NCBI GenBank assembly: GCA_002772695.1 | Contig: PFDI01000006.1 | Span: forward strand, 1,214-65,213 | Origin: Candidatus Pacebacteria bacterium CG10_big_fil_rev_8_21_14_0_10_44_54 | GTDB lineage: Bacteria > Patescibacteriota > Microgenomatia > UBA1400 > PJMF01 | DNA length: 64,000 bases | Reading direction: 5' to 3' | In this document: positions 6,161 to 37,933 of the stretch, piece after piece | How the letters are laid out: each line of letters starts with the position of its first letter | How positions within the stretch are numbered: the first letter of the stretch is position 1 | Position numbers and translations under genes: made by a program | Notes under the pieces: generated by a model | Seen by the model: the letters and a program-made list of their open reading frames with translations, nothing else | The model's database searches: none | What the model was told of the DNA's origin: nothing

Positions 6161-6958
6161 ATGATTATTGACACACACTGCCATTATAATCTTGAACCGC
6201 TTTTTTCATCATGGCAAACACACTGGAATAAGGCACAAACCGCGGGTGTATTGGCGACCATAATTGTTGGCACAAATCTCGAATCTAGCAACATAGCTTA
6301 CAAGCTTGCCAAAGATAACAAAGCTTTTTTTGCAACTATAGGCCTACATCCAAATCACTTTCAAACCATGAAGCAGCTCGAAGAAATAGCCAAACTAGAA
6401 CCGCTAATTGCAGACACTAGCGTGGTAGCAATCGGCGAAATTGGTCTTGACTTCTTTCGACTCACTGACTCGCCTAGCGATCAACAAATTAAAGAATTGC
6501 AAAAACAAGGCTTCCGCCTACAACTCGAGCTTGCCGCAAGATATAACCTTCCTGTCTGCCTACACGTACGTGATAAACAAGCCGAAGCATACTTTGCTGT
6601 TTTAGAAATCATAAAATCTGTCGAGCGAAACCAGCTGCCATTTATTTTGCACTGCATCTCTGGACCAACTGAATATATAGCAGAAGCTCTAACGCTCGGT
6701 GCGTATCTAGGCGTTGCGGCAAATAGCACCTATCCAAATAACCATGCAATTCGAAGCAGTCTTGCAAAGTCACCAAACAACCGAATTTTACTAGAAACAG
6801 ATGCGCCGTACTTGCCACCACAACCATATCGCGGTCAAGTTTGCGAGCCATGGATGATTACTGAAACTGCCAAAGCACTATTTTCTCAAAAAAAAATTTC
6901 TGCTAACCAGATACTAAACAACACGAAGGCAGCTTTTTTAGATAAAATAACCATATGA
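6161..6958 (+). CDS. tatD: TatD-family metal-dependent DNase/hydrolase
   Basis: MIIDTHCHYNLEP start, IGEIGLDF, LHVRD and LETDAPYL motifs of the TatD family. Confidence 0.9.
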   Translation: MIIDTHCHYNLEPLFSSWQTHWNKAQTAGVLATIIVGTNLESSNIAYKLAKDNKAFFATIGLHPNHFQTMKQLEEIAKLEPLIADTSVVAIGEIGLDFFRLTDSPSDQQIKELQKQGFRLQLELAARYNLPVCLHVRDKQAEAYFAVLEIIKSVERNQLPFILHCISGPTEYIAEALTLGAYLGVAANSTYPNNHAIRSSLAKSPNNRILLETDAPYLPPQPYRGQVCEPWMITETAKALFSQKKISANQILNNTKAAFLDKITI

Positions 6959-8466
6959 ATATTGGAGAAAAAATAGCACGCTACGTGACTAGACACCCGG
7001 TAAAAACACAGCGAGGACTAGAAATTTTGCCAGGATTTGTCTCGTGGTCACTTATTCTCTTTCCAGTCTGGGGGTCATTTGTCGTACCTGAGGTAGTTGC
7101 ATACTACGTTATCACGTTTAGTGTGTACTGGCTGTATCGCTCAATTACTATGGCAATTTTTTCAGTTTTGGCACACCTAAAGGTGCGAGCAGCTAGTAAG
7201 TTTGATTGGCTAGACAATCTCAAGCAACAACACCCAAAAACCTGGAGCACGATTCATCACTGCATCATTATACCCACCTATAAGGAGCCGCTTGAAACCC
7301 TGGTGCGTACCTTGGCCGCGCTACAAGCCCAAACATTTCCAAAAGAAAACCTACATATTGTTCTATCTTTTGAGGAGCGCGAAGGTGCTGCTGCAAGAAA
7401 AAAAGCCGCGGAACTTTCACAAAGATTTCACAAAACATTTGGCTCACTTCTCACCACATATCACCCCGACATTGCAGATGAAATAAAGGGCAAGTCTTCC
7501 AATACTGCTTGGGGGGCGAGGCAAGCAAAGAAATTGATCATCGATAAAAAAAAGATCTCACTAAACAATACTACAATCACAAGTGAGGACGCAGATGCTT
7601 TATTTCACCAATCATACTTCACCGCACTTACCCATGACTTCTTGACTCGAGAAGATCGCTACAACTGTATCTGGCAAGGTTCGATCGTATTTTATAACAA
7701 TATTTGGAGTGTTCCCGCTCCAATCCGCGTGCTCGCCTCACTTTTTTCTGTGATTCAAATGCATCTACTGATGCGGTCAGATCGATTGATTAATTTCTCT
7801 ACCTACTCGACTTCTTTTCGGCATATAGTTGATATCGATTTTTGGGATACCGACGTCATACCCGAAGACTATCGTCTCTTCTTTAAATCCTACTTTGCCA
7901 AGAAAGGTAAGTTTGAGGTTCACCCAATCTTTTTACCAATCTACTCTGACGCACCAGAATCACCTACACGCTGGCAAACGTACAAAAATCAGTACGAACA
8001 ACTCAAACGCTGGGCTTGGGGTGTCAGCGATGACGCCTATATTATCAAGCAGTACCTCACAACTCCAAACGTTCCATTTTGGGATAAATCTATTCGTGTT
8101 CTTAAAACAATAGAGGATCATTTTCTTTGGCCAGTCAATTGGTTTGCTATTACAGTATCCGCGTTCTTTCCCCCACTTCTTAATGAGGAGTTTAATAGAA
8201 CCGTAATTGGTAAAACACTTCCACAAGTTACCTCTGCCCTCCTGACCGCCTCACTCATCTCAATGTTCGCAGTCTTTATTATTGACGCAATAAATCGCCC
8301 ACCAAGACCCAAAAAGAGAAGATTTTTGTCAATTATCTTTCAGCCACTCGAGTTTTTGCTCTTACCCATCATTGGTTTTTTCTTTTCTGCCCTGCCTGGC
8401 ATTGATGCACACACCAGACTGATGCTTGGAAAATATTTAGAGTATAAGGTGACAGAAAAAGTTTAA
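6955..8466 (+). CDS. membrane-embedded family-2 glycosyltransferase (GT-A fold) with N- and C-terminal TM segments
   Basis: CIIIPTYKEPLETLVRTLAALQAQTFP is a GT2 nucleotide-sugar binding region. A DAD (DxD) motif is present. Flanking hydrophobic helices suggest a synthase-like membrane GT. Its ATG overlaps the tatD stop. Confidence 0.7.
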   Translation: MNIGEKIARYVTRHPVKTQRGLEILPGFVSWSLILFPVWGSFVVPEVVAYYVITFSVYWLYRSITMAIFSVLAHLKVRAASKFDWLDNLKQQHPKTWSTIHHCIIIPTYKEPLETLVRTLAALQAQTFPKENLHIVLSFEEREGAAARKKAAELSQRFHKTFGSLLTTYHPDIADEIKGKSSNTAWGARQAKKLIIDKKKISLNNTTITSEDADALFHQSYFTALTHDFLTREDRYNCIWQGSIVFYNNIWSVPAPIRVLASLFSVIQMHLLMRSDRLINFSTYSTSFRHIVDIDFWDTDVIPEDYRLFFKSYFAKKGKFEVHPIFLPIYSDAPESPTRWQTYKNQYEQLKRWAWGVSDDAYIIKQYLTTPNVPFWDKSIRVLKTIEDHFLWPVNWFAITVSAFFPPLLNEEFNRTVIGKTLPQVTSALLTASLISMFAVFIIDAINRPPRPKKRRFLSIIFQPLEFLLLPIIGFFFSALPGIDAHTRLMLGKYLEYKVTEKV

Positions 8467-10050
8467 ATGACTATACTGAGTGCACAAATGAAATTACTCT
8501 CAGAAATTCGCGAGCGCTTGCGTGAGCCAAAAAGCATCTTGTTTCTATTGCTCCTACTTCTTACCTTACTAAGAGTTCCTAATTTCTCAGAACCGTACTG
8601 GTATGGTGATGAGGGAATCTACCTTACAATTGGCAACGCCTTGCGTGAAGGTGGTACGCTCTACACCACTATTGTTGATCATAAAACGCCACTCATTTAC
8701 TACCTCGCTATGATTGTTGATAACCAACTACAGTTTCGTGTGCTGCTGTATGGCATGATGCTGCTCTCAACCGCTGCTTTCTTCTCGCTTTGTCAAACAT
8801 TGTTTTCTCGACTCAAACCTGCTGCATTTGCTACCCTACTCTTTGTTGTCTTTACTTCTCTGCCCTGGTTTGAAGGGCATATCCCCAACGGAGAACTATT
8901 TGTCATTTCATTTGTACTGTATGGAGCTTGGCTCTTTGTCAAAACACCTGTGGCACAGGCCTTCTTTTTACGAAAGACTGTCAAAACACAAAAAAACTTT
9001 CTGCTGTTTGCGGCTGGAGTCAGCTTTGGTCTTGCGCTGCTAACAAAAGTACCTGCCTTATTTGATATCATCGCCTTTGGCGCAGTTTTTGTTTTCTTGA
9101 TTTGGAGGGAGCATTTCCAACTTCTCACTACTCGACTAAAGGAAGCTTTTGTCTTTGTAGCAGGCTGCCTTATACCGCTTGTGCTCTCAATTGTATATTT
9201 TTATGCAATAGGCTCAGGCAGTGACTATCTTGATTTTGGCTTGCTCTATAACTTCAAGTATGCAGGATCATGGCAACTTGCATTTGCTAGTCCTGTTGTG
9301 CTTTTTCTCTTTAGTTTACCAGGAAAAACACTTGTTCTCGGCAGCATACTACTACTCATACTTGGTCTGAATAAAAAACTTTCAGCGGCCAGCCAGTTTT
9401 CACTCGCTTGGTTTTGGCTCTCATTATTTGCTAGCCTTCTTTCTAATCGACCATATCCGCATTATTTCTTGCAGGCAATTCCCCCCGCTGCAATTCTAGT
9501 AGTACTACTGATTATGCAAACAAGAAAAATTTCTTCAGCCTCCAATGCTATCAAGCTTACTTTGCTTGGTGGAAGCCTGAGTACGTTGCTTGCCGTGCTT
9601 GTTTTGCTGCATGTTGGACTTTATAGCACTGTCTCTTACTACACAAATTGGCTCCGTTACATGAGCAAGCAAACAAGCAGACAAGAGTACTATCAATCAT
9701 TTGACAAGCTAATGAGTGACAACTATGCGGCTGCAAAACTTATTATCACCACACAAGACAAACCAAGTCTGTTTATCTGGGGCACTAATCCCATGCTATA
9801 TGCGCTCACCAAAGCCGTGCCTCCTACTCGCTTTACAGTTTCATTTCATGTTGCTGATTTGGATGTATACAGTGAAACTATGTCCGATGTCTATTCCGCT
9901 CAGCCTGAATTCATTGTCGTAATGAACAACGAGTCGAGAAACCTACCTGGCCTCAATGCAATGCTTTTCGAAGCGTATACACTCAATGCACAGTACCAAC
10001 ACTTTACACTTTGGAAACGGTTATCGAACGCATCAAGCCTGCTATACTAG
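8467..10050 (+). CDS. GT-C family glycosyltransferase (ArnT/PMT_2-like; uses a polyprenyl-phosphate-sugar donor)
   Basis: 527 aa with more than 10 TM helices. The first-loop motif EPYWYGDEGIYLTIGNAL corresponds to the conserved DE/acidic motif of ArnT/PMT-type GT-C enzymes. Confidence 0.7.
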   Translation: MTILSAQMKLLSEIRERLREPKSILFLLLLLLTLLRVPNFSEPYWYGDEGIYLTIGNALREGGTLYTTIVDHKTPLIYYLAMIVDNQLQFRVLLYGMMLLSTAAFFSLCQTLFSRLKPAAFATLLFVVFTSLPWFEGHIPNGELFVISFVLYGAWLFVKTPVAQAFFLRKTVKTQKNFLLFAAGVSFGLALLTKVPALFDIIAFGAVFVFLIWREHFQLLTTRLKEAFVFVAGCLIPLVLSIVYFYAIGSGSDYLDFGLLYNFKYAGSWQLAFASPVVLFLFSLPGKTLVLGSILLLILGLNKKLSAASQFSLAWFWLSLFASLLSNRPYPHYFLQAIPPAAILVVLLIMQTRKISSASNAIKLTLLGGSLSTLLAVLVLLHVGLYSTVSYYTNWLRYMSKQTSRQEYYQSFDKLMSDNYAAAKLIITTQDKPSLFIWGTNPMLYALTKAVPPTRFTVSFHVADLDVYSETMSDVYSAQPEFIVVMNNESRNLPGLNAMLFEAYTLNAQYQHFTLWKRLSNASSLLY

Positions 10051-10056
10051 TGCGGT

Positions 10057-10389
10057 ATGGCATATTTGCAACAATTTCGCACACCACTAATCGGTAATAT
10101 TATCATCATTCTTATTCAAGTCAGCCTGACTGTTGTAGCCTTAAAAACCATACAGCCAGTTGTTCCACTTCTAAACAATCAGCAGCTGGCAAACAACACG
10201 CTGTTGCCAAAAGCTTGGCTGACAGTTATTCCTACACTCTCACTCTTTTTTAGCCTCTGTAGCCTTTCACTCATGGTTTTTTGTCACAGCTTGAACAAAA
10301 CAGTTTTACATTTATTTGCTTGGACCAGCACAGCATTTAATGGCATTTTATTACTCGCGCTCACTCGCATCATTATGCTTGTCAGGTAA
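10057..10389 (+). CDS. small 3-4 TM membrane protein, possibly a GtrA-like flippase accessory
   Basis: 110-aa hydrophobic ORF embedded in the glycosyltransferase cluster. The GtrA assignment rests on size, topology and context only. Confidence 0.4.
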   Translation: MAYLQQFRTPLIGNIIIILIQVSLTVVALKTIQPVVPLLNNQQLANNTLLPKAWLTVIPTLSLFFSLCSLSLMVFCHSLNKTVLHLFAWTSTAFNGILLLALTRIIMLVR

Positions 10390-10394
10390 TACAT

Positions 10395-11456
10395 ATGCTC
10401 GCATTTTTTCTTAGTTTTTTGTTTGCTTTTCTTCTAGCACCAGTTGTAATTCGGCTCTATAAAAGACAAGGTTGGCTCGATGATCCTGCGCACAATACCC
10501 ATGTGAAAAAAACTCATACAACAGCAGTGCCACGCGGAGGTGGTTTGGTTATTTTTTTTGCCGTGCTAGCTTGTAGTCTACTTTTCTTACAGTTTGATCA
10601 ATACTTACTCGCTATCCTGACTGGAGCTCTCCTGCTCACTATAATCGGCTTCTTGGATGATATACTCGACCTTCATCCCTTTCCTCGTTTAGCGATAAAC
10701 GGCCTCGCAGCCTTAATCGTAGTTGGTTCTGGTATTGGTATAGCCTATATCAGCAATCCTTTTAGCTCTGGCGTACTCATGCTTGATCAACCGAGACTAA
10801 CGCTCTCATTCTTGGGTGAAACAAGAAGTATTTGGGTTTTGGCAGATCTCTTTGCTGTTTTTTTTATCATTTGGAATAGCAATATCGTTAATTGGTCAAA
10901 AGGTGTCGATGGACAATTGCCGGCTTTTTCAATGGTAGCACTCGTGTTTGTTGGTCTGTTGTCTCTTCGATTTTTTGATGATCCAACTTCGTTCAACACT
11001 GCCCAGCTTGCTTTCATTGTTGCCGGAGCATTTGCAGGACTACTGCCGTGGAATTGGTTTCCCCAAAAAATTATGCCGGGGTACGGTGCCGGCTCTCTAG
11101 CTGGATTTTTCTTAGGAGTACTGGCTATTCTCTCTGGAGCAAAATTAGCAACGACACTTATGGTACTTGCTATTCCAACAGCTGATGCTGTGTTTACCAT
11201 CGTTCGCAGACTACATGCAGGAAAATCACCATTCTGGGGCGACAGAGGACATCTACATCATAAATTATTTGATACCTTCGGTTGGAGCAGACAAAAAATA
11301 GCAATATTTTATGGCATCTCGAGTGTAGCGCTTGGCTTCCTCTCGCTGTATTTGAATACTGTGGGAAAATTGCTTACAATAGCAATTACCATGAGCCTCG
11401 TGTTTGGTCTCTTATCTTGGATAAAGATCAAAAAAAGTACTCAGAAAAAAATATGA
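10395..11456 (+). CDS. polyprenyl-phosphate sugar-1-phosphate transferase of the WecA/TagO/MraY (GT4-PNPT) family, WecA-like
   Basis: Motifs GWLDDPAHNTHVKKTHTTAVPRGGG (WecA-type PRxGG), IGFLDDILDL (DDxxD) and 10-11 TM helices. Confidence 0.8.
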   Translation: MLAFFLSFLFAFLLAPVVIRLYKRQGWLDDPAHNTHVKKTHTTAVPRGGGLVIFFAVLACSLLFLQFDQYLLAILTGALLLTIIGFLDDILDLHPFPRLAINGLAALIVVGSGIGIAYISNPFSSGVLMLDQPRLTLSFLGETRSIWVLADLFAVFFIIWNSNIVNWSKGVDGQLPAFSMVALVFVGLLSLRFFDDPTSFNTAQLAFIVAGAFAGLLPWNWFPQKIMPGYGAGSLAGFFLGVLAILSGAKLATTLMVLAIPTADAVFTIVRRLHAGKSPFWGDRGHLHHKLFDTFGWSRQKIAIFYGISSVALGFLSLYLNTVGKLLTIAITMSLVFGLLSWIKIKKSTQKKI

Positions 11457-12421
11457 CTGCGTCGCTCCCCAAAACTCTTTTTCTGTTGTTAAAAACAGCC
11501 CGTCCTCGACAATGGGTAAAAAATCTCTCGTTATTCGCAGCTTTACTCTTTTCTGGTTTCTTGTTTTATAACCCTGTAGATGCTTTGCCGTACTTTTGGA
11601 CTGTAGCTCTGGCAACACTCACTTTTACGTTGGTTACTTCTGCTATTTACATAGCCAATGACCTCGTTGACAAAAAAGCTGATGCCCAACATCCATTTAA
11701 GCGAAAACGACCCATAGCGTCGGGAGAGCTTTCAACCGAAGTGGCAAAACTGGCTGTCTTCTCTTTACTTATTCTGGCGGGGTTTTTTTCACTTTATTTT
11801 TCACTTTTTTTCAAACTGCTGGTACTGCTGTATATTCTGCTACAAATTGGATACTCAAAAATATTTAAACATGTTCCAATTCTTGATGTTGCTTCAATTG
11901 CACTTGGGTTTCTAATTCGAATTTATGCGGGCTCTGTCGTGGTCAACCTACACATGAGTGTTTGGTTTTTGCTCACAGTTATCTCTGCTTCACTCTTTCT
12001 TGCGGTAGGGAAAAGACAAAGTGAGAGAACCCTACTAATGGGAAATTCTTCTGAATCAATTGGAAGTACTAGAAAAATCCTCAAACGATATAGCGAGCGC
12101 TTGCTGGATCAATACACTGCAATGTTTGCCACAGCAACTTGGCTGACATACGCTATCTTTACTTTTCAAAATGAAGTCATTGTTCCACAATCTGAATTTG
12201 CAACAATCTTTCGGCTGTTACCAAAAACACTTCACACCCAAAAATGGCTTATGATCTCTGTACCCTTTGTCATCTTTGGTGTCATGAGGTATTTGCAGCT
12301 TGTGTATGAAAAAAACCAAGGAGAATCTCCAGAGCGAGTGCTCTTTAATGACAAGCCCCTACTCATCACCGTTTTTCTTTTTGGCCTCAGCGTTATTTTT
12401 GCCTTGTACTTACTTGCATAA
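11453..12421 (+). CDS. UbiA-family prenyl-phosphate phosphoribosyltransferase (decaprenyl-phosphate 5-phosphoribosyltransferase/DPPR synthase-like)
   Basis: Start chosen at MTASLPK (ATGA overlap with the upstream stop at 11454-11456). The TARPRQWVKNL motif is the DPPR-synthase (Rv3806c-like) hallmark. YIANDLVDKKADAQHPFKRKRPIASG is the UbiA Asp-rich region. About 8 TM helices. Confidence 0.7.
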   Translation: MTASLPKTLFLLLKTARPRQWVKNLSLFAALLFSGFLFYNPVDALPYFWTVALATLTFTLVTSAIYIANDLVDKKADAQHPFKRKRPIASGELSTEVAKLAVFSLLILAGFFSLYFSLFFKLLVLLYILLQIGYSKIFKHVPILDVASIALGFLIRIYAGSVVVNLHMSVWFLLTVISASLFLAVGKRQSERTLLMGNSSESIGSTRKILKRYSERLLDQYTAMFATATWLTYAIFTFQNEVIVPQSEFATIFRLLPKTLHTQKWLMISVPFVIFGVMRYLQLVYEKNQGESPERVLFNDKPLLITVFLFGLSVIFALYLLA

Positions 12422-12424
12422 TTT

Positions 12425-13675
12425 ATGCAGCGATTTGTAGAGCGCTACTACAATCCCTTGTTGCTCGTACTCGTAGCAATCGCATTTTTCTCTCGCCTCT
12501 ATCGAATTCACATTCCAGAGCGGTATATGTTTGATGAGGTATATCACGCTGTGACAGCTCAACTCATTGCAAAAAATGATCCAAGAGCTTATGAATGGAC
12601 TGCCCAGTCTGATCAACCAAATACTGCAATTGATTGGCTGCATCCACCGGGCGCTAAATTATTTCAGGCTGGAAGCGTGTTGTTATTTGGCGAAACTAGT
12701 TTCGCTTGGCGAATTAGTTCTGTTGTATTTGGAACGCTCGTGGTTCTTACAGTGGGTTGGTTAACCCAAGCTTTGTTCGCAAATAAAGCACTCTCGCTGT
12801 TCGCCACACTCTTTGCAGTTTGTGACGGTTTACTACTTGTACAATCTCGTATCGCGATGAACGACATTCATGTCACGTTTTTTATATTGCAAACACTGCT
12901 ATGGTATTGGCTCTACCGAGAAAAAAAAGTTGTAAAGTATTTTATAGTCGCAATTGTAATGGCTGGTTGTGCTGTAGCAAGCAAGTGGTCGGGATTATTT
13001 GTATTTGGAGTGATCACAATTGTAGAACTTGCTCAGTGGCAGAAAGATCAAACTATACATCTGCTACAAAAAATTTCTCTATTACTACTACTTCCATTAG
13101 GAATATATCTGGCAAGCTACTCGCAAATGTGGCTACAGGGAAAATCACTTACCCACTTTATTCAACTTCACAAACAAATTTGGGCCTACCAAACAACTTT
13201 GACTGCGACTCACCCATACCAATCTACTCCTCTCCAGTGGTTCTTGAATATCAGACCTGTTTGGGTTTCTGTTGAGTACGGCAGCGAAACTAGGGCAGAC
13301 ATTTATGCTTTTGGTAATCCAGCATTATTTTTTTGGGGCATGTTTGCCATACTGTTTAGTGCTGTTTCAGTAGTACAGCTTCGAAAAAAAATCTCACCAG
13401 CGTTTATATTTTTATTCTTAGCTTATATTATAGTCTGGACCCCCTGGTTTCTCTCTCCTCGCGTTATGTTCTTTTATCACTACACACCAGCCGTCCCTTT
13501 ACTCTGCATCTTACTCGCCTACTGGCTGGTGAAAATAAACAAAAAATCTCTCACGATAACAATTTCCATCAGCATCATTCTTGCCAGTATTGTTTGGTTT
13601 CCTCATTGGACACAACTGCCTGTTTCAAACAAATTTGCTGATGATATTTACTTTTATTTTACAACGTGGAAATAA
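12425..13675 (+). CDS. GT-C family glycosyltransferase (PMT/GT39-like dolichyl/polyprenyl-phosphate-sugar:protein or glycan transferase)
   Basis: 416 aa, multi-TM. The first-loop MFDEVYHA motif (DE) matches the PMT family. Confidence 0.7.
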   Translation: MQRFVERYYNPLLLVLVAIAFFSRLYRIHIPERYMFDEVYHAVTAQLIAKNDPRAYEWTAQSDQPNTAIDWLHPPGAKLFQAGSVLLFGETSFAWRISSVVFGTLVVLTVGWLTQALFANKALSLFATLFAVCDGLLLVQSRIAMNDIHVTFFILQTLLWYWLYREKKVVKYFIVAIVMAGCAVASKWSGLFVFGVITIVELAQWQKDQTIHLLQKISLLLLLPLGIYLASYSQMWLQGKSLTHFIQLHKQIWAYQTTLTATHPYQSTPLQWFLNIRPVWVSVEYGSETRADIYAFGNPALFFWGMFAILFSAVSVVQLRKKISPAFIFLFLAYIIVWTPWFLSPRVMFFYHYTPAVPLLCILLAYWLVKINKKSLTITISISIILASIVWFPHWTQLPVSNKFADDIYFYFTTWK

Positions 13676-20379: not shown

Positions 20380-20618
20380 TTCTGAGGTTACGGGCAATCC
20401 AATCGTTTTCAGCTCGTTTCTAGCGTACTGTTTGACCATGAGTTAGTTGGATGTATAGATCTAGCATTTCATGAAATCAGCAAAAAACTTGCAGTAGTTG
20501 CAGACAATTGGGCCTCTGCAGCAAAATTGTTGAACCAAGTTATGGAAGACAGAAAAGTCTAATTCTACAGTGTAAATCAAAACTTTGAACGTATCTAAAA
20601 CCTAATTGCCTGCTAGTG

Positions 20619-20692
20619 TCGGGGTGACTGGACTCGAACCAGCGATCTCGCGACCCCCAGCCGCGCATTCTAGCCATCTGAACTACACCCCG
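20619..20692 (-). tRNA. tRNA-Pro (anticodon GGG)
   Basis: The reverse complement CGGGGTGTAGTTCAGATGGCTAGAATGCGCGGCTGGGGGTCGCGAGATCGCTGGTTCGAGTCCAGTCACCCCGA folds as a cloverleaf: a 7-bp acceptor stem (CGGGGTG/CACCCCG), an anticodon stem CGCGG/TCGCG with loop CTGGGGG (GGG anticodon after U33), and a T-arm GCTGG-TTCGAGT-CCAGT. CCA is not encoded. Confidence 0.8.
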
Positions 20693-25257: not shown

Positions 25258-27507
25258 TCACAAACGCCTTCGCCATTTGCGAACTAGCTCAAATACGCGC
25301 ACTACCCAAAACCGTGGCGAGAGCGGAATATCCTGTGCTTCAAGGTATTGCACCTCTCTCCCACCAAAACCACGCTTAAATAATGATACTCCTGCAAATC
25401 GATGTCCTTTCACACCAGGTGGAGCAACGCCCCAAAGGTTATAACTTTGACAACCGTGTTGTTTTGCTTCGATGATGACGCGCCACTGAACTGCATAGGA
25501 ACCTGGTAATTTAGTGTTAGCGTCAGTTGAAACACCATAGTGATAGACTGCTTGCTGGTGATACATCAGTACAAATGCAGAGGCAAGTAGTTGCTCACCT
25601 TGATAAGCAGAGACTAAAATTGCCTGATTATTTTCTGCAAATATGCGAAATTGTTCAACTAAAAAATCATAGCTAAATGGCACAAAATCGTGTCTGGCTG
25701 CCACCAACCGCTGTTCCTCATAAAACTGTTTGATTGCGCTCGGATCACGAGAAACAGTGGTTCTAATTCCCAATTTTTCTGCTTTTTTGATTGCCGAACG
25801 GGTGTTCTTGCGCATTTGTGCCAAGATTTGCTCATTATCTTTGGCAAGATCGATCTCTATGGTTCTATCTGCCGTCACATGCATAGCAGCAGGTACTGCG
25901 CCTAGTTGAGCTGCTTGGGCTCGAGCACCAGGGTTCTCGAGCACCTGCGGTCTAAATCTAAGAAAAGAACAGCCGTGCTGTTTTGCAATTGTCCGCAAAT
26001 GAGAAAAAAAAGCCGAAGCAACCAATATGCGATCCCAATCTAACAATGGTCCGCCCGGTAAGCTGCAGTAAGTACCGCGTCGCGCTCGCTCAAAAATCAT
26101 AAGTGCTACACCAATCAAATTACTTTTCTCATACAAGCCAATTCGAGCAATCTCTTTGCCAAGTTTTCGCTGAAACTCTCCCCAGTGCCAGGATTGCAGG
26201 AAATTCGCCTCTACTCGATTTGCCAACCAATCTTCCCAAATTTCTTTTTTGGTTATTTCTCTCACGACGTAGTCCTGTTGTATATCCAATTGCCCCAAGA
26301 TCACAGTCGCCAAACGAGCCGCAACTTGTGGTGTAATCTGGCGATGTGTGGGAAGTGTAAAGACAGTACTAGCAAGTGCCTCAGCTGCCAAACAACTCCC
26401 TACTTGATACGTTGTATTCCACTTGGTGCTGCCTGCATCTACAGCAGACCGATACCAGCGATCAGATAAGTAGAAATTATGTTTTTTTAACTCTGCTGTC
26501 AAAGTGGCTGGATCTCTAGCTATGATGGCAAAGCGCAGCGGCGAAAGCTTGTCTGTTGTTGCTGGCGAGACGGCGTACTGAAAAAGAAAACGCTCATAAA
26601 TGGCCGCAATTTTTGCCCGATGCTCTAAAGCCTGTGACAATGAATGCAACTGCTCAAAGACCAATCGAGCCTGTCCCACAGAAAGCTTCTCAAAAAGTGG
26701 TGTGGTGCGAAGCACTGGAGAGGTAATGATGCCAAAAGATACAGCGACTCGCTGCAATACTTTGCCCAAACCAAGTGAGAATGTAGCTCGTATTATCACT
26801 GTCAAAAGCGGATAGAATGCCTGGCGCCAGTCACTACGTGAGCGCAGTAAGTGCCGACTGGGCTCTTCTACGAGTAGGTTTTTGCGAAATAAACAGCAGC
26901 CACCTGCAACGACATCAATCACTTTATCTCTACCAAACGAAGTGACAACAATATCTCCAAAACTACCCAGTAATTTTTTATCCGATGTATGACTGCCAAA
27001 AGATTGAGCTAGGTCCTCTATGAGCAATAAGTTATTTTTGTTACACCAATCACGGATTGCGACAATAGCTGCCGGATAACCAAGTAGGTGTTGGACTAAA
27101 ACTACTCTTGCATCTGGATTGGCAGCAAATGCTTTCTGCAGGGTTTCGACATTCAAATTGATTGAGTGTTCAGCGAGATCGACAAAAACCGGTTGTAGTT
27201 TTGCCCCCAAAATTGCCTCCTCTATCGCAGCACATGTAAAGGCTTGTGTCAGCACTTTTGCATTCTGTGGCAGTGACAAAGCTTGGAGTGAAAACTGAAT
27301 TGCATCGCGACCAGTGGAAAAAAAGTATGGATCAGTAAACTCAGGAAAGTACTCAAGCAATTTAGCACTCAAGTCTGTTTGTGTTTGCCTCAAATTTGGA
27401 GGAAATATATACCACCACAATGCCTGACAGGCAAATTTCAGCGAGTAATTTGACCCAAGGCTACCAAAAATAGGAACAGTCTGATTCATAAATGCTCTGT
27501 TAGCCAT
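25258..27507 (-). CDS. bifunctional fusion of an N-terminal DegT/DnrJ/EryC1/StrS-family PLP sugar aminotransferase and a C-terminal FemAB-family (FemX-like, GNAT-fold) aminoacyl-tRNA-dependent transferase
   Basis: The N-terminal half has the DegT pattern (VLTQAFTCAAIEEAILGAKLQPVFVD...LLLIEDLAQSFGS...GSFGDIVVTSFGRDKVID with a putative PLP-binding Lys). The C-terminal ~335 aa starts with FLQSWHWGEFQRKLG and continues with YHYGVS...NLWGV, which is FemAB/FemX-like. It is one uninterrupted 749-aa ORF. Confidence 0.75.
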   Translation of the reverse strand: MANRAFMNQTVPIFGSLGSNYSLKFACQALWWYIFPPNLRQTQTDLSAKLLEYFPEFTDPYFFSTGRDAIQFSLQALSLPQNAKVLTQAFTCAAIEEAILGAKLQPVFVDLAEHSINLNVETLQKAFAANPDARVVLVQHLLGYPAAIVAIRDWCNKNNLLLIEDLAQSFGSHTSDKKLLGSFGDIVVTSFGRDKVIDVVAGGCCLFRKNLLVEEPSRHLLRSRSDWRQAFYPLLTVIIRATFSLGLGKVLQRVAVSFGIITSPVLRTTPLFEKLSVGQARLVFEQLHSLSQALEHRAKIAAIYERFLFQYAVSPATTDKLSPLRFAIIARDPATLTAELKKHNFYLSDRWYRSAVDAGSTKWNTTYQVGSCLAAEALASTVFTLPTHRQITPQVAARLATVILGQLDIQQDYVVREITKKEIWEDWLANRVEANFLQSWHWGEFQRKLGKEIARIGLYEKSNLIGVALMIFERARRGTYCSLPGGPLLDWDRILVASAFFSHLRTIAKQHGCSFLRFRPQVLENPGARAQAAQLGAVPAAMHVTADRTIEIDLAKDNEQILAQMRKNTRSAIKKAEKLGIRTTVSRDPSAIKQFYEEQRLVAARHDFVPFSYDFLVEQFRIFAENNQAILVSAYQGEQLLASAFVLMYHQQAVYHYGVSTDANTKLPGSYAVQWRVIIEAKQHGCQSYNLWGVAPPGVKGHRFAGVSLFKRGFGGREVQYLEAQDIPLSPRFWVVRVFELVRKWRRRL

Positions 27508-28961
27508 TGCGGCATTCTGCCTTCTAGCAATAACACTGTGTTTTTATCAAGTAACTGTATTTTTTTGCGCACATCGGCTTGCGTAGAAACTAGCTTGTCA
27601 GAAAACACTTGCTGAAACACTGTCTTGCCTGCTTCTCCAAGATACCAAACTTCGCCCACAACCACTGCAGCTTGCTGCGCTAGTTGAGAGTGAATTGCGA
27701 CAGACTCTCTGCCGAGATCAACAATGCCTGTTGTGATTAATATTTTGCGTGACTCAGATTGTTGTGCTAATAACCGCAAAGCGGCCGAGAATCCATCGGG
27801 ATTGCTGGTACCAAAATCATCTAGTATTGTCGCTCCAGACTTCGCAGTTTTGCGCTGGATCCATTTGTCACCAGGGACAAATGATTCTAGTCTAGCCACA
27901 ATTTGTTTGTCTGAAAGTTTCAAGTATTGTGCTGCTGCTATTACAGCCTTAATACTGTCTTGGTAGTGATCACCGACTATCTTAGATTGCAGCTTAGGGG
28001 ATGAATTTCGCCATGTCTCGACTATCTCAAGCGCACAGATGTTCTTGGCTGCAGCGACAATTTGCATTGCAGACTGATTGGCACAAAACACAGCAGCACC
28101 TTGTGGCAATGACGCAAGCAGTTCTGCCTTGGCTTCGGCTATAAGCTGCTTCGAACCAAATAATTCAAGATGTTGTTTGCCAAGCCCGGTGAGAATGGCC
28201 ATGTCTGGAGGAGCTACTGAAGCTAATCGAGCAATTTCACCTACTCTGTATGCGGCATACTCTAGCACAAGAATTTTTGAGCAACCCAAGTGCTTGTATA
28301 CATATCGCGCTACTCCCAAAGCAGTGTTGATCGATCCCGGAGTGGTGCAAACCTTGCCCCGCTGTTGCAGTACGTGACTCAACAGCTGTTTAGTTGTCGT
28401 CTTGCCATAACTACCAGTTATTCCAATGATGAATGGTTGTTGCTTTTTTATACGCTGGCGCACCAGAAACAAATAGTAGGTCGTCACAAGTGATACCAGT
28501 CCTCCTGTCAAGGCTGTGAATAATAACAACACTACAGGCGCAAAAATATATACACCGATTGCAAGTACAATCAGGCGAATTGTTGCAATAGCTGGTACGG
28601 CTACAACCCAATAAGCTAGTGAAAAAACAAGTAGAAAAAGCACGACAACACTACCCAAAAGCAGTATTCCCACACGCAGTGTTCTTTTCGGTCGTTTAAA
28701 TGTTTTCAAACGAAAAATTGTCAGCGATGGCAACACGTGTAGTAATATTTGGCGACCTGTTAGGGAGCGTATATGGGCTACTAATCTATCAAGTCGATAC
28801 TCTTTTTGCTGCAACAAGCCACTCCACCAGATCAAGCCAGCAAACGTATCAAGTAGACACCCAAGCAGAAAAAGAACAATAATAAAATTACCCATTGTGT
28901 GCCTCAATAATGTACCTCCCAACTTGTTTTGGATGCGTAAACGGCACGCCGTGTCGAGCAT
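27486..28961 (-). CDS. Mur-ligase-family protein, MurF-like (central and C-terminal domains), with an N-terminal polytopic membrane domain replacing the usual UDP-MurNAc-peptide-binding domain
   Basis: The first ~170 aa form 4-5 hydrophobic helices. They are followed by Mur ligase P-loop IIGITGSYGKTTTKQLL, AILTGLGKQHLELFGS and the C-terminal ATILDDFGTSNPDGFSAAL (MurF-like DDSYNANP motif). The 3' end overlaps the fusion gene by 22 nt. Confidence 0.75.
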   Translation of the reverse strand: MLDTACRLRIQNKLGGTLLRHTMGNFIIVLFLLGCLLDTFAGLIWWSGLLQQKEYRLDRLVAHIRSLTGRQILLHVLPSLTIFRLKTFKRPKRTLRVGILLLGSVVVLFLLVFSLAYWVVAVPAIATIRLIVLAIGVYIFAPVVLLLFTALTGGLVSLVTTYYLFLVRQRIKKQQPFIIGITGSYGKTTTKQLLSHVLQQRGKVCTTPGSINTALGVARYVYKHLGCSKILVLEYAAYRVGEIARLASVAPPDMAILTGLGKQHLELFGSKQLIAEAKAELLASLPQGAAVFCANQSAMQIVAAAKNICALEIVETWRNSSPKLQSKIVGDHYQDSIKAVIAAAQYLKLSDKQIVARLESFVPGDKWIQRKTAKSGATILDDFGTSNPDGFSAALRLLAQQSESRKILITTGIVDLGRESVAIHSQLAQQAAVVVGEVWYLGEAGKTVFQQVFSDKLVSTQADVRKKIQLLDKNTVLLLEGRMPQWLTEHL

Positions 28962-29634
28962 TGGGAATCAGTCGCAATCTTGCGGTTGGAATGCCTTGTT
29001 GTAAACGAGCGACAAACTCTAGAGGTGTAGTCTCGTCATTTGCTCCCCAAATAATAGTTGTGTCAGCAGTAATACTGGGCAAAAGCACGTCTACCTCATG
29101 CTCTAACACGCGCCGCATTGACTCTCTCATAATTGGATTGGCCTTGAGATAGTCTTGCTCTCCTGCCAATCGATAAATAACTCGACGAAGCAGATTGGAA
29201 GTAGTGAGTTTTTTGCCAAATTTTGCCAGGTAGTAAAAAAAATTTCGCTTAAGCCAAGATGTCAGGCTCTGTGAGCGCATACCAGCACTCGCAATAAGTA
29301 CTAACTTTTCTACCTGACTTGGGAAACGGGCGGCGTATGTAACTGCCAAATGCCCTCCAAACGAGTGACCAACCAACGTTATTTTTTTCTTTCCAACAAA
29401 TTGTCTTGCCAGCCATGCAACATATTCATCTACTCCCCAGGATTCAGTGAGCGGAAACTCAAATCCGGGCAGTCTGAGAACACTCCCTTTGATACCTACA
29501 TTTTGTAGCTGTTGTTTGATTGGCTGCCACTTTGCGCTTGGACTCGAATCTCTTGACCAACCGTGAAGAATGATGACCTCCGATGTTGTGTTCTCCATAA
29601 GCTCATTATACGCACCTCTGGCGAAAAAACGCAC
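28888..29634 (-). CDS. alpha/beta-fold hydrolase
   Basis: HGWSRDSS (HG oxyanion), nucleophile elbow LVGHSFGG, and a C-terminal His (NARHGVPFTHP). Its 3' end overlaps the MurF-like gene. Confidence 0.75.
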   Translation of the reverse strand: MRFFARGAYNELMENTTSEVIILHGWSRDSSPSAKWQPIKQQLQNVGIKGSVLRLPGFEFPLTESWGVDEYVAWLARQFVGKKKITLVGHSFGGHLAVTYAARFPSQVEKLVLIASAGMRSQSLTSWLKRNFFYYLAKFGKKLTTSNLLRRVIYRLAGEQDYLKANPIMRESMRRVLEHEVDVLLPSITADTTIIWGANDETTPLEFVARLQQGIPTARLRLIPNARHGVPFTHPKQVGRYIIEAHNG

Positions 29635-29669: not shown

Positions 29670-30344
29670 ATGCGTACACTTACTTTGCTCACCCTCGCAA
29701 GCTTCGCTCTCATCATTTCTGCCTGCACACCGCCAACCACCACTTCACCTCTCAAACTCAACTCAGCCGCAAGCCAAACAGCTACAAATACTACTAGTAC
29801 TAATCAAGGTCAGCCACCACTTGCAGATCAAAAGGACACTATGTCGCCAAATGGAAAATCAGAAAAAACCCTGGCAGATTTCGGTGAAATCGCCGGTAAA
29901 ACAGTTACGCTCACGACTACCAAAGGGCCCGTGGTAATCGAGCTCTATCGAGAAGAAGCGCCGCTCACTACAGCAAATTTTCTCTCGCTCGTCAATACTG
30001 GCTTCTATGATGGCATCGTTTTCCACCGAGTGATTGCAGATTTTATGGCACAAGTGGGCGATCCGTTGACCAAAGATCCAAACCAACAAGCAATGTGGGG
30101 TACTGGGGGACCTGGTTACATCATCGCTGACGAATTTGCACCAGGACTCTCGCACAATAGTCCCGGTGTTGTTTCTATGGCAAACTCTGGACCAAACACT
30201 GGTGGTAGTCAGTTTTTCATTACCTACGGACCAACGGAGTGGCTCGATGGCAAACACGCCATTTTTGGTAAAGTCACTCAAGGAATGGACGTCGTTGAAC
30301 AAATTACCGTTGGTGATTTGATTGTGTCGATTCAGGTGGAGTAA
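29670..30344 (+). CDS. cyclophilin-type peptidyl-prolyl cis-trans isomerase, predicted lipoprotein
   Basis: Signal peptide with lipobox LIISAC. Cyclophilin core FHRVIADFMAQVGDP...SMANSGPNTGGSQFFI. Confidence 0.85.
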   Translation: MRTLTLLTLASFALIISACTPPTTTSPLKLNSAASQTATNTTSTNQGQPPLADQKDTMSPNGKSEKTLADFGEIAGKTVTLTTTKGPVVIELYREEAPLTTANFLSLVNTGFYDGIVFHRVIADFMAQVGDPLTKDPNQQAMWGTGGPGYIIADEFAPGLSHNSPGVVSMANSGPNTGGSQFFITYGPTEWLDGKHAIFGKVTQGMDVVEQITVGDLIVSIQVE

Positions 30345-31938
30345 GGCATTGCAAGCAAGTACAAAAAATAAAATCCTTCGATTTTTTTTGTACAGTATTT
30401 GTTTGCTCTCCCTGTTTCTTTCGTTCGGCATCCTAGCTACAGCCAACGCCTATCATTTGTTGATAACAGGCAATTACAAACAATCACATAAAAGTGCGGC
30501 GTTTGCACTGCCAGTTGCAAGACTGACAAACAAGACTTGGGTGAGTGGATTGCAAACACTCATTGCCACAGGCAATACGCTGCTTGAACTCGAAAGGCTA
30601 CAGCAGGATGTTAATACTGGCGTTCCTCCAAATATCTCCGGACTCGTTCAAAATTTGCGTCAGGCAGAAATCAACTTAGAACATGCTTCGCAAAATATCA
30701 AAAACTCCAGCCTGCTCTCCCTCATTTTTTCTGACAAACGTGAGCGGATCGAAGAAATTACCAACACACTCAAACACATGCTGCCACTAGCAGAATACTT
30801 CATACAAGATGAAAAAAATCTACTGGTACTACTACAAAACTCGGATGAACTGCGCGCGACGGGCGGCTTCATGGGCTCATATGCAGTACTCCGTTTTGAC
30901 TCAGGTGTACTGCAAGAAATTGTGGTGGAAGATATCTATGACGCTGATGGACAGGTACTAGAATACTTCGAGCCACCCAAAGGAGTTGGTGAGTTCTTGA
31001 GCGGCGGCAATGGCTGGCGACTACCTGATGCCAACTGGCACCCTGACTTCGCCCAGAGCTCACGAGACACGCTGCGGTTTTTTGCCTTGGCAGGTCACGG
31101 CAGTATTGATGGAGTCATTGCGATCAATTTGCCGGTCGTGCAGTCACTTCTTGCTATCACTGGTCCTATCCTGCTACCCGATCAAGATCTTGTTTTAAGT
31201 GCTGAAAATATTAGCCAAGCACTAAGAACTGACAGAGAGTCATTTTTTGCTGGTAGCACTGCCAAAAAAAATACTATGATTCAAGCAATTACCCAACTAA
31301 AACTTTCTATTGCTGCCCTAGAAGGTCGCGGAAAAATGCAAGTACTTGAGCAACTCAGACAACAAACCAAAAAAGGAAATGTTCTGGTATATTTTCCAAA
31401 CCCAGAGCTCGAAAAGCATGTCGCGCAACTAGGTATTTCGGGTAGTCTTGGACCGAGTAATATAGATGCACACAGTCTCTATTATTATCCAGTAGAATCA
31501 AATGTTGGCATCAATAAAGTCAATGCCTTTGTCATGCGTGAGTACGTTATGACAACCGCAGATACCATCACTGAACTTGGCATCACTCTACACAATACCA
31601 GTAGCCAAGATGGCTACGTCAATTATCAGCGGCTTCTGTTTGCCCCAGGACAACGTGTAGAAGAAATAGTCGTGAACGGTGAACAAATTTTACAATTTGA
31701 TCGTGAGCAAGTCGCGAGTAGTACTGGCCAGCACTACGACCAAATTGGATTTCTCGTCACGACCCTGCCGAACAACACGACGCGCGTTGCTATTTCTCTT
31801 TCGCATGATTCCGGATTCACTCGTGTAATATTTCAAAAACAACCTGGTACGAATGATACAACCCTCACTAGCATCACTCCGGATACTGCTACAACTCACC
31901 AGTTGAACCAATCCTTTCTCGAGTACGTGATAGAATGA
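30322..31938 (+). CDS. large membrane-anchored extracytoplasmic protein, DUF4012-like
   Basis: One N-terminal TM helix followed by about 490 aa of extracytoplasmic domain. The motif [22 protein letters not shown] recalls, from memory, the TGGFxGSY signature of DUF4012 proteins found near cell-wall genes. Confidence 0.5.
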
Positions 31939-36745: not shown

Positions 36746-37933
36746 GTGAGAATCACTTTGTGCACACTGCTCATCGCGTTTACCTTGCGGTTTGGACTAG
36801 ATACAGCGCATGCCCAAAACATTGTTGTTTCCGAACTTTACCCAGCTCCCAATGCAGGTGAAAATGAGTGGATAGAACTCTACAATGCAGCGTCAAGCGC
36901 TGCAGATCTAACCGATTGGACTGTGTTTGACACACTCAGTACTCCCAGCTTGCTGCACCAATTTACAGATTTTATTTTGCAGCCATACGAAATTTTTATT
37001 CTCAATTTATCAGGCAGCACGCTCAATAACACTGGTGACACTGTTGTCCTAAGTGATCCGGCTGCTACCTATTCAGCTTCACTCTCTTACTCGAGTAGCA
37101 CCAAAGGTCTTTCGTGGCACCAAGATTTGCTGACAGGAGAAGTGTTCGAGTCATCACCTAGCGCAGGTATTGTCGCTACTGCAAGTGCAGTGCAACCTAG
37201 TCCAATACCCATCGCTACTCAAGCAGCTGTCTCGGCCACTCCTGCTGCTGTAGTAATAAAACCAAACGTGCAACTTTCTGAAATCATGGCATGTCCTTAC
37301 TCTGGACAACCAGAGTGGATAGAGCTGCGCAACTTCGGTGAAACTATTTCGCTTGAAAACTGGCTAATTACAGATAGCACCGGAAACACTCGGGAACTCG
37401 CTGGTTTGATAGCAAATGACAGCCGAGTGGTTTTTTCTTGGAGCAACAGTATGCTTAATAACTCAGGAGACTCGCTCCTCATCACGACCAATCTTGGCAC
37501 CGTAGTTGCTGAAGCAAGCTACTCATATTGCAAAAGTGGCTACAGCCTAACTCTGAACAACGACAACTGGGTGCCTTCGCATCCGACGCCAAACGAGGCA
37601 AATAAGCTGTTTGAAGAAAGTGATGGGGAAGATGTAATGGAGGTGAACAAAATTGAAGCCACAAGTGTGCAGTCTACTGCCGCTTCTGCAGATCAAGTCA
37701 AAGATTCTGGACAAGTCCTTGGCACTACAATAACTGCACAGCCAGCCTATCCGTATTCACTAGCAAAAGAAATTATCACAATACAAGCATTGGTGCAGCA
37801 AGATAAACTGACAAAAAATACGACACAGAAATCGCTACCAGCCAAATCAAATGAAACATCACTCGGTGGTATACTAGGAGGCCTGCTTGTAACAATAAGT
37901 AGTCTCTATGCCCGCAAAGATCTCTTCACCTAG
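36746..37933 (+). CDS. secreted, C-terminally membrane-anchored protein with two lamin-tail (LTD) domains
   Basis: Signal peptide. Two repeats, VVSELYPAPNAGENEWIELYN... and QLSEIMACPYSGQPEWIELRN..., match the LTD pattern. Ser/Thr-rich linkers and a C-terminal TM helix are present. Confidence 0.6.
   Translation: MRITLCTLLIAFTLRFGLDTAHAQNIVVSELYPAPNAGENEWIELYNAASSAADLTDWTVFDTLSTPSLLHQFTDFILQPYEIFILNLSGSTLNNTGDTVVLSDPAATYSASLSYSSSTKGLSWHQDLLTGEVFESSPSAGIVATASAVQPSPIPIATQAAVSATPAAVVIKPNVQLSEIMACPYSGQPEWIELRNFGETISLENWLITDSTGNTRELAGLIANDSRVVFSWSNSMLNNSGDSLLITTNLGTVVAEASYSYCKSGYSLTLNNDNWVPSHPTPNEANKLFEESDGEDVMEVNKIEATSVQSTAASADQVKDSGQVLGTTITAQPAYPYSLAKEIITIQALVQQDKLTKNTTQKSLPAKSNETSLGGILGGLLVTISSLYARKDLFT

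Follow-up and report, generated by a model that had tools for sequence, protein, structure and literature searches.

A MurF-like ligase with a membrane N-terminal domain in place of the UDP-binding domain, in Candidatus Pacebacteria and many other bacteria

In a 64,000-nt stretch of the Candidatus Pacebacteria bacterium CG10_big_fil_rev_8_21_14_0_10_44_54 assembly (contig PFDI01000006.1; the window, throughout), a reverse-strand gene encodes a Mur ligase that combines MurF-like catalytic domains with a membrane-embedded N-terminal domain. MurF, a textbook enzyme of the cytoplasm, is essential and serves as an antibiotic target; its three-domain architecture, including a uridine diphosphate (UDP)-binding domain 1, is taken as universal. 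The protein described here lacks domain 1 and scores below the curated MurF threshold, yet its sequence and relatives make it most probable that it acts as MurF in its lineage. An earlier note, made from the sequence alone, had already described it as a MurF-like ligase with a polytopic membrane domain instead of the domain that binds UDP-MurNAc-tripeptide (MurNAc, N-acetylmuramic acid), and had named structural modelling, homologue searches and gene neighbourhoods as ways of checking this.

That the central and C-terminal domains (domains 2 and 3) are MurF-like and that domain 1 is truly absent follows from NCBIfam, a profile search of the PDB, Foldseek and alignment to E. coli MurF, which bear out both parts of that description. 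Pfam finds Mur_ligase_M (PF08245, E 5.7e-25) and, just above its cut-off, Mur_ligase_C (PF02875, E 1.8e-6, 29.3 bits against 28.4). The best NCBIfam model is murF (TIGR01143) with 173.3 bits, MurD coming next with 59 bits, and the alignment to the murF profile, 418 positions long, starts only at position 68. Against the PDB, the family profile matches MurF (E 2e-43) better than MurD (1.5e-16) or MurT (3.5e-13), and the ten best Foldseek matches of the AlphaFold2 (AF2) model are all MurF. E. coli MurF aligns only from residue 94-96, its residue 94 pairing with ligase residue 145; BLASTP gives 27% identity over residues 94-379, active-site H and K included, and hhalign joins domains 2 and 3 to canonical MurF with a probability of 100%. 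MurF domain 1 (PF01225) is absent from the ligase and from all 240 listed homologues. A 48-sequence alignment shows no variation in the P-loop GITGSYGKT with its Lys K165, in the Mg-binding Glu E212 or in H242, and at least 90% of the sequences keep K256 (residues are numbered on the 469-aa protein throughout); the catalytic region matches E. coli AAHLEGFGS...AKAKGEI. The C-terminal LLEGRMP motif is typical of a ligase subgroup associated with DegT and FemAB genes.

The source DNA carries an open reading frame (ORF) at 27486..28961 on the reverse strand, whose translation contains the motifs GITGSYGKTTTKQ, AILTGLGKQHLE and ATILDDFGTSNPDGFSAAL quoted by the earlier note. This ORF exists as described there; its start was placed too far upstream, by 22 codons, and the real coding sequence begins at 28895. 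The first ATG of the longer ORF sits 74 nt within the upstream gene. The second (28895, MGNFIIV...) overlaps the stop of that gene as ATGGGTAA and is preceded by GAGG 9 nt 5′ of the ATG, and P0001, a 469-aa hypothetical protein from a Candidatus Pacebacteria metagenome-assembled genome (MAG), matches the ligase from this ATG with 100% identity and coverage. ATG 28895 is thus almost certainly the true start. The overlong ORF might be read as a sign that the hydrophobic region is an untranslated annotation artefact and that a soluble, N-terminally shortened ligase starts further in. This reading is refuted, and we give it practically no chance: hundreds of homologues share the N-region as protein sequence (25-58% identity), some residues such as Q29 and Y33 never varying, a shorter protein would find no Met to begin from before residue ~232, the start codon overlaps the upstream stop, and the AF2 model is confident across the entire N-domain.

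The membrane domain of the N-region is genuine. Its layout (Table 1) was drawn from hydropathy, the 48-sequence alignment and AF2 models of the ligase and of the N-domain, with predicted local distance difference test (pLDDT) values of 92.6 (predicted template modelling score 0.88) and 90.7. Where the earlier note had counted four to five hydrophobic helices, we find three transmembrane (TM) segments and an amphipathic linker helix. The TM2-TM3 loop has 7 residues and zero charge, and the linker continues unbroken from TM3 in the AF2 model (helix 101-152) and runs into the P-loop strand. The long TM1-TM2 loop and the ligase are placed in the cytoplasm because of the positive-inside rule, with 12 Lys and Arg in the 48-residue loop. 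This loop is also the best-conserved part of the domain, with the motif QQKEYRLDR...KRPxxTxR and conserved W24, Q29, Q30, K31, E32, Y33, R34, D36, R37, R68, P69, T72 and R74. No Pfam match was returned for the N-terminal ~170 residues of the ORF in a scan of the full protein; the isolated N-domain gave only noise at E<=10 (the best two, Mntp with 0.0026 and LPG_synthase_TM with 0.007, fall short of the cut-off), and its model has no fold neighbour in the PDB by Foldseek (best E = 6).

In two members of the Candidate Phyla Radiation (CPR), at 9962-11335 of locus L012 and 9644-10990 of locus L038 (related loci are numbered with the prefix L), the N-domain is reduced: TM1 is weak or missing, and the QQxEYxLDR / KxxWTPK motifs are retained. 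What stays constant is the cytoplasmic motif and not how many TM helices there are.

Table 1. Features of the ligase gene and its immediate neighbours, in window coordinates.
Feature	Position	Strand	Basis or remark
Membrane-N-domain MurF-like ligase, coding sequence	27486..28895	(-)	469 aa + stop; the 28961 version is an upstream extension
N-terminal membrane domain, residues 1-153, in place of MurF domain 1	28437..28895	(-)	hydropathy, alignment, AF2, E. coli MurF alignment
TM1, residues 3-26, hydrophobic, sequence not conserved	28818..28889	(-)	hydropathy, alignment
Conserved cytoplasmic loop, residues 27-74, LLQQKEYRLDRL ... FKRPKRTLR	28674..28817	(-)	alignment; 12 K+R
TM2, residues 75-97	28605..28673	(-)	hydropathy, AF2
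TM3, residues 105-128, with conserved P120	28512..28583	(-)	hydropathy, alignment
Amphipathic linker helix, residues 129-153, TM3 to ligase	28437..28511	(-)	hydropathy, AF2
Central ATP-binding Mur ligase domain	27906..28436	(-)	Pfam, alignment
P-loop GITGSYGKT	28398-28424	(-)	alignment
H242	28170-28172	(-)	alignment to E. coli MurF
K256, at the carbamylated-Lys position of Mur ligases	28128-28130	(-)	alignment to E. coli MurF
C-terminal Mur ligase domain, with GIVDLG and C-terminal LLEGRMP	27489..27905	(-)	Pfam, alignment
DDFGTSNP motif (MurF: DDxYNANP)	27798-27821	(-)	aligns to E. coli LLDDSYNAN
Partner alpha/beta-hydrolase	28888..29634	(-)	Ser91 in GHSFGG, Asp200, His228; overlaps ligase start
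Downstream fused DegT-like pyridoxal phosphate (PLP) aminotransferase (~1-405) and FemAB-like aminoacyl-tRNA transferase (~415-749)	25258..27507	(-)	one in-frame 749-aa ORF

Homologues of the ligase share this architecture in more than 10 phyla and are not ordinary soluble MurF. The best 120 are all from Patescibacteria (33-58% identity, 93-100% coverage). A scan of one genome per species, with loci viewed at ±10 kb, returned 80 loci. In nearly all of them the product is a MurF-like ligase, 480-570 aa long, whose P-loop is preceded by 3-5 hydrophobic segments. By record title the loci come from Poribacteria, Chloroflexota, Acidobacteriota, Clostridia, Bacilli (including complete Pseudalkalibacillus genomes) and Haloplasma, together with Alphaproteobacteria-like and Bdellovibrionota-like MAGs, Omnitrophota, Bacteroidota, Cyanobacteria, NC10 and many CPR classes. 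The motif that defines the family, [LY]Q..xY...R..W ... K..x..T.R before the P-loop, is present in the Pacebacteria ligase (Q29, Y33, R37, K67, T72, R74). Among 79 proteins from more than 10 phyla, Q29 and Y33 are conserved in 100%, T72 in 96%, R37 and R74 in 82% and K67 in 76%, the wide-family consensus of the N-domain being HxxQxExYxxxRYLxW ... KKxLVxTxRAKRL. The members tested all have murF as best model, matched from profile position ~63-68 and below cut-off (217-263 bits for the wide family).

With proteins clustered at 50% identity, a profile of the N-domain reaches 2,903 representatives when the threshold is E<=1e-3 and 1,296 when it is E<=1e-10; a profile search of a set of 5.8 billion proteins gives at least 8,000 at E<=1e-20. 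In the best 150 matches the domain begins at residue 1-24, short ones being truncated or frameshifted gene copies; given this N-terminal position in all of them, the domain is known only fused to a MurF-like ligase. In RefSeq the cultured members, from Pseudalkalibacillus, Caloramator, Caloranaerobacter and Clostridiisalibacter, bear the name MurF. Among the genomes with the gene that are complete or nearly so are Pseudalkalibacillus sp. A8 (NZ_CP174509.1) and sp. SCS-8 (CP143541.1), Caloramator sp. E03, a Poribacteria genome (OZ245030.1) and a CPR genome (GCA_020632265.1). The literature on membrane-anchored MurF, CPR Mur ligases, dcw (division and cell wall) clusters with a hydrolase or FemAB and DegT in Patescibacteria yielded no account of a MurF embedded in the membrane. 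The family is widespread and multi-phylum, and apparently undescribed. We at first suspected a paralogue specific to CPR, acting in a DegT/FemAB pathway, and gave this up once the genome scan had given a multi-phylum family with dcw context.

Gene neighbourhoods, which the earlier note had pointed to, reveal a constant alpha/beta-hydrolase partner across the family and positions in the murF slot of dcw clusters. Six Poribacteria loci read rsmH-ftsL-ftsI-murE-hydrolase-ligase-ddl-mraY-murD-ftsW-murG, with the hydrolase-ligase pair exactly where murF is expected (some of these genes were identified by Pfam on cluster members, some by N-terminal motifs). Two further cases are Proteobacteria-like dcw clusters. 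In L036, murE (481 bits), mraY (417 bits), murD and ftsW are followed further on by murC, murB, the hydrolase-ligase pair on the opposite strand, ddl, ftsQ, ftsA and ftsZ; the murE-mraY gap at the usual murF site measures 446 bp and holds no canonical murF. In L030, murE (577 bits), a 152-aa ORF and mraY precede murD-ftsW-murG-murC-murB and then the convergent hydrolase-ligase pair. Chloroflexota show murA-hydrolase-ligase-ddl, and in CPR the order is hydrolase-ligase-degT-femAB-mraY-ftsW-murG in L031 (Woesebacteria, with the QQKEY motif as in the Pacebacteria ligase) and murA-hydrolase-ligase-degT-femAB-.-mraY-murD in L085. Neighbouring Mur-ligase genes number 17 in the 82 gene-called loci; nine were typed as MurC, MurD or MurE, and the remaining ones (Poribacteria, at -2/+3) were taken by position as MurE and MurD. 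Canonical MurF was found in none of the 87 related loci (±10 kb each). The murF-slot position in Poribacteria and the murE-mraY arrangement without canonical murF in the two Proteobacteria-like clusters make the pair most likely the MurF of these lineages, and gene context as a whole argues strongly that MurF function is supplied by this family, which in several lineages has taken the place of the canonical gene. The Pacebacteria cassette, by its shared N-motif, hydrolase and DegT/FemAB genes, can be regarded as orthologous although moved away from the dcw genes.

In 66 of the 82 loci the hydrolase gene comes directly upstream of the ligase, reads from the same strand and as a rule overlaps it; in 72 it lies within five genes. 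In the window it is translationally coupled to the ligase and starts at GTG 29634 or ATG 29598. Its Ser-Asp-His triad is invariant in 71 sequences, with an HGW oxyanion motif conserved at 96-99%, and its closest relatives are generic esterases and lipases. A role as depsipeptide esterase tied to D-Ala-D-Lac was considered and is unsupported, most Ddl proteins of these modules keeping the omega-loop Tyr of D-Ala-D-Ala ligases. Two irregular loci were also seen. At 8223-9542 of L023, within a Poribacteria dcw cluster, a 439-aa ORF separates hydrolase and membrane-MurF; it was rejected as a canonical MurF, being a transposase-like insertion. At 8726-12438 of L064 (NC10 MAG, long-read assembly) hydrolase, ligase and ddl lie in overlapping or merged frames (ORFs of 819 and 1083 aa), which are probably frameshift errors rather than real fusions.

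Downstream of the ligase there are two alternatives. In 37-43 non-CPR loci the gene is ddl, whose product passes the D-Ala-D-Ala ligase cut-offs and mostly carries the omega-loop Tyr, and in 22-24 loci of Patescibacteria a DegT-like PLP enzyme and a FemAB-like transferase are found instead. Every other cassette examined (L001-L011, L016, L022 and others) encodes them by two genes that abut; in the window they are fused, and the start of the fusion is likely ATG 27489, overlapping the ligase stop as ATGA. Its FemAB half resembles FemA, FemX and a recently solved aminoacyl-tRNA-dependent peptide synthase. The four-gene cassette recurs in differing flanking contexts. Within Patescibacteria, ddl and DegT+FemAB share one syntenic slot: Doudnabacteria L038 has SerRS-hydrolase-ligase-DDL-FtsQ, to be compared with SerRS-hydrolase-ligase-DegT-FemAB-FtsQ in L022, L028, L033, L045, L049, L062, L080 and L081, of which L049, L062 and L081 are Saccharibacteria. 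The extreme C-terminus of the ligase co-varies perfectly with this choice, being N[DN]x[PT][DE], of NDxPD type, in 42/42 Ddl-linked and E[GSN][RKH..], of EG[RK]xP type, in 23/23 DegT/FemAB-linked proteins. The switch hints that most CPR obtain the added peptide from another source or add one of another kind. A further arrangement occurs at 9232-15965 of L087 (Pseudalkalibacillus sp. SCS-8, CP143541.1) and in L050, with hydrolase, membrane-MurF, Ddl, Peptidase_M15 (VanX-like D-Ala-D-Ala dipeptidase) and a class B penicillin-binding protein (PBP); this Bacilli module resembles a self-contained alternative precursor or resistance-like set.

Taken together with the catalytic domains, these contexts make it likely that the ligase performs the MurF step at the membrane, and the family is probably a housekeeping MurF and not an exotic side activity. 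The membrane-embedded ligase would then be the MurF-step enzyme of the Pacebacteria genome. As in MurF, ATP would activate the stem tripeptide to an acyl-phosphate at its C-terminal carboxylate, and a D-Ala-D-Ala-type dipeptide would attack this through its amine. The conserved Q/Y/K/T/R loop would take over from domain 1 and hold the acceptor by its carrier end, on the cytoplasmic side of the membrane. The hydrolase would be an obligatory catalytic partner, and Patescibacteria, with DegT-like and FemAB-like genes in the place of ddl, may make or modify the added peptide in another way. To our knowledge, all UDP-using Mur ligases keep domain 1, and every Mur-family ligase that lacks it (MurT, FolC, PgsB, CphA) acts on a non-UDP acceptor. 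Because of these other acceptors and of the conserved juxtamembrane residues, we lean slightly towards undecaprenyl-pyrophosphate-MurNAc-tripeptide made by MraY, rather than soluble UDP-MurNAc-tripeptide, as the acceptor. The full statement, a MurF step at the membrane with a lipid-linked tripeptide, is put forward tentatively, as a possibility somewhat short of even. In its widest form it would have most Patescibacteria and a large fraction of bacteria carry out the MurF step on undecaprenyl-pyrophosphate-tripeptide after MraY, in an obligate complex with the hydrolase, the terminal peptide of CPR coming from a tRNA-dependent FemAB/PLP route that displaced ddl; so broad a claim we hold to be improbable.

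Several observations weigh against a membrane MurF with a lipid-linked acceptor. The score of 173.3 bits falls well short of the curated TIGR01143 cut-off of 288.6, and a domain that defines MurF is missing. The sequences of the TM helices show little conservation, as would those of a mere anchor. MraY in the dcw clusters looks ordinary (411-417 bits) and gives no hint of a changed pathway order, and the hydrolase has no place in the textbook Mur pathway. Within the 64-kb window there is no dcw gene, ddl or mraY near the cassette, and the absence of canonical MurF holds for the ±10 kb loci; this or related genomes may encode one elsewhere. In CPR, the lack of ddl and the different C-terminal motif of the ligase mean that the added substrate may differ, and the Bacilli module, outside dcw and with its VanX-like peptidase and class B PBP, is accessory-like, so the ligase may be an accessory copy there.

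Some of these points would fit an enzyme that performs the same MurF step on soluble UDP-MurNAc-tripeptide, the TM helices only tethering it beside MraY and MurG for channelling and the Q/Y/R loop, perhaps with the hydrolase, forming a new UDP-binding site in place of domain 1. Conservation is confined to the cytoplasmic loop while the TM sequences vary, the invariant Gln and Tyr could recognise uracil, murE-ligase-ddl-mraY is the textbook gene order with an MraY that scores as a normal equivalog, and domains 2 and 3 are close to canonical MurF. Tethering, however, needs no deletion of domain 1, which is missing in every member seen; the known ligases without it use other acceptors, as said above, and the basic juxtamembrane KKxLxxTxRxKR sits where the pyrophosphate head group of a lipid would be. 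We consider this explanation nearly as likely as the one with a lipid-linked acceptor. A further departure would be a paralogous Mur-type ligase whose acceptor is another carboxylate at the membrane, extended by an amino acid or peptide, for instance a lipid II side-chain carboxylate (as MurT does) or another lipid-linked envelope precursor, in partnership with the hydrolase and, in CPR, DegT/FemAB, canonical MurF being encoded elsewhere in the genome. The sub-threshold MurF score and C-terminal motifs unlike the canonical KGSR would agree with it, as would a constant hydrolase partner foreign to the Mur pathway, the sugar-aminotransferase-like and FemX-like genes of the CPR cassette, the distance of the cassette in the window from dcw genes and the Bacilli module. 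It is nevertheless unlikely: the pair occupies the exact murF slot in six Poribacteria clusters, murE abuts mraY in two dcw clusters that hold the pair within or beside them, the commonest downstream gene is a D-Ala-D-Ala-type Ddl, and canonical murF appears in 0/87 related loci. A PgsB/CapB-type poly-gamma-glutamate synthetase or a MurT-type lipid II amidase subunit would also suit a ligase at the membrane, PgsB having an N-terminal membrane anchor and MurT acting on lipid II, and MurT is among the PDB matches. Both are effectively refuted and very improbable, since the PgsB model is absent from the 23 NCBIfam matches (E<=0.01), MurT reaches at most 18.7 bits against a cut-off of 800, Pfam finds no DUF1727 domain, neither pgsC/pgsA nor gatD or amidotransferase neighbours occur in any locus viewed, and MurF is better by 30 orders of magnitude in E-value.

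Comparison with known systems places the membrane family closest to canonical MurF (TIGR01143; PDB 1GG4, 3ZL8, 4CVK), its top match in sequence and fold. The two share the central and C-terminal domains, the P-loop, the catalytic His and Lys and the DDxxxxNP and G..[DE]LG motifs, and members of the family, though not the one in the window, also lie between murE and mraY and beside ddl. They differ in that canonical MurF has the UDP-binding domain 1 (1 to ~93 in E. coli), a C-terminal KGSR and no alpha/beta-hydrolase partner, whereas the family has a domain of 3-5 TM helices with a motif of its own, a C-terminal NDLPDxY (Ddl-linked) or EGRxP (CPR) and a hydrolase that would be obligatory. MurT, which works with GatD, is also a Mur-family enzyme without domain 1 that acts at the membrane on a lipid-linked peptidoglycan precursor, and so offers a precedent for a lipid acceptor; it is, however, soluble, with a DUF1727 C-terminal domain and a need for the glutaminase GatD, none of which applies to the Pacebacteria ligase, and its similarity is far below that of MurF. 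PgsB/CapB likewise has a Mur central domain after an N-terminal membrane anchor and belongs to a membrane complex, but its anchor is a single helix, it lacks the MurF-type C-terminal domain and its partners are PgsC and PgsA, in contrast to the hydrolase, DegT and FemAB beside the Pacebacteria ligase. The MurE-MurF fusion of Bordetella (PDB 8F5D, among the PDB matches) is another natural rearrangement of MurF in the dcw cluster; it keeps domain 1 and is soluble, while the membrane family has lost domain 1.

A MurF-type ligase without domain 1 thus occurs in thousands of lineages, including nearly all sampled classes of Patescibacteria, Poribacteria, Chloroflexota and many Clostridia. Should the proposed function hold, it would revise the picture of where, and on which carrier, the pentapeptide is completed, and the hydrolase would be an added enzyme of the peptidoglycan pathway. 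The exchange of ddl for DegT/FemAB would likewise provide an entry point to the poorly understood CPR cell wall, and the family would be relevant to the design of MurF inhibitors. It would also matter for automated annotation, because its members either score under the curated MurF threshold or bear the MurF name without comment.

Elsewhere in the window, at 6955-10050 and 10395-13675 on the forward strand, two large ORFs of 503 and 527 aa without Pfam match are followed by a glycosyltransferase family 4 gene (GT4, WecA-like, not MraY), a UbiA prenyltransferase and a PMT-family glycosyltransferase, and this may be a lipid-linked glycosylation locus. A tRNA-Pro(GGG) at 20618-20692 on the reverse strand lies immediately upstream of recA; the listed recA start (20606) reads through this tRNA, so the real start must be further downstream. 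Finally, two uncharacterised envelope-type proteins are encoded on the forward strand, a DUF4012 protein (30322-31938) and a Lamin-tail-domain protein (36746-37933). The former is kept beside the cassette in the Microgenomates loci L001, L003, L005 and L007-L010, and the latter recurs in L001.

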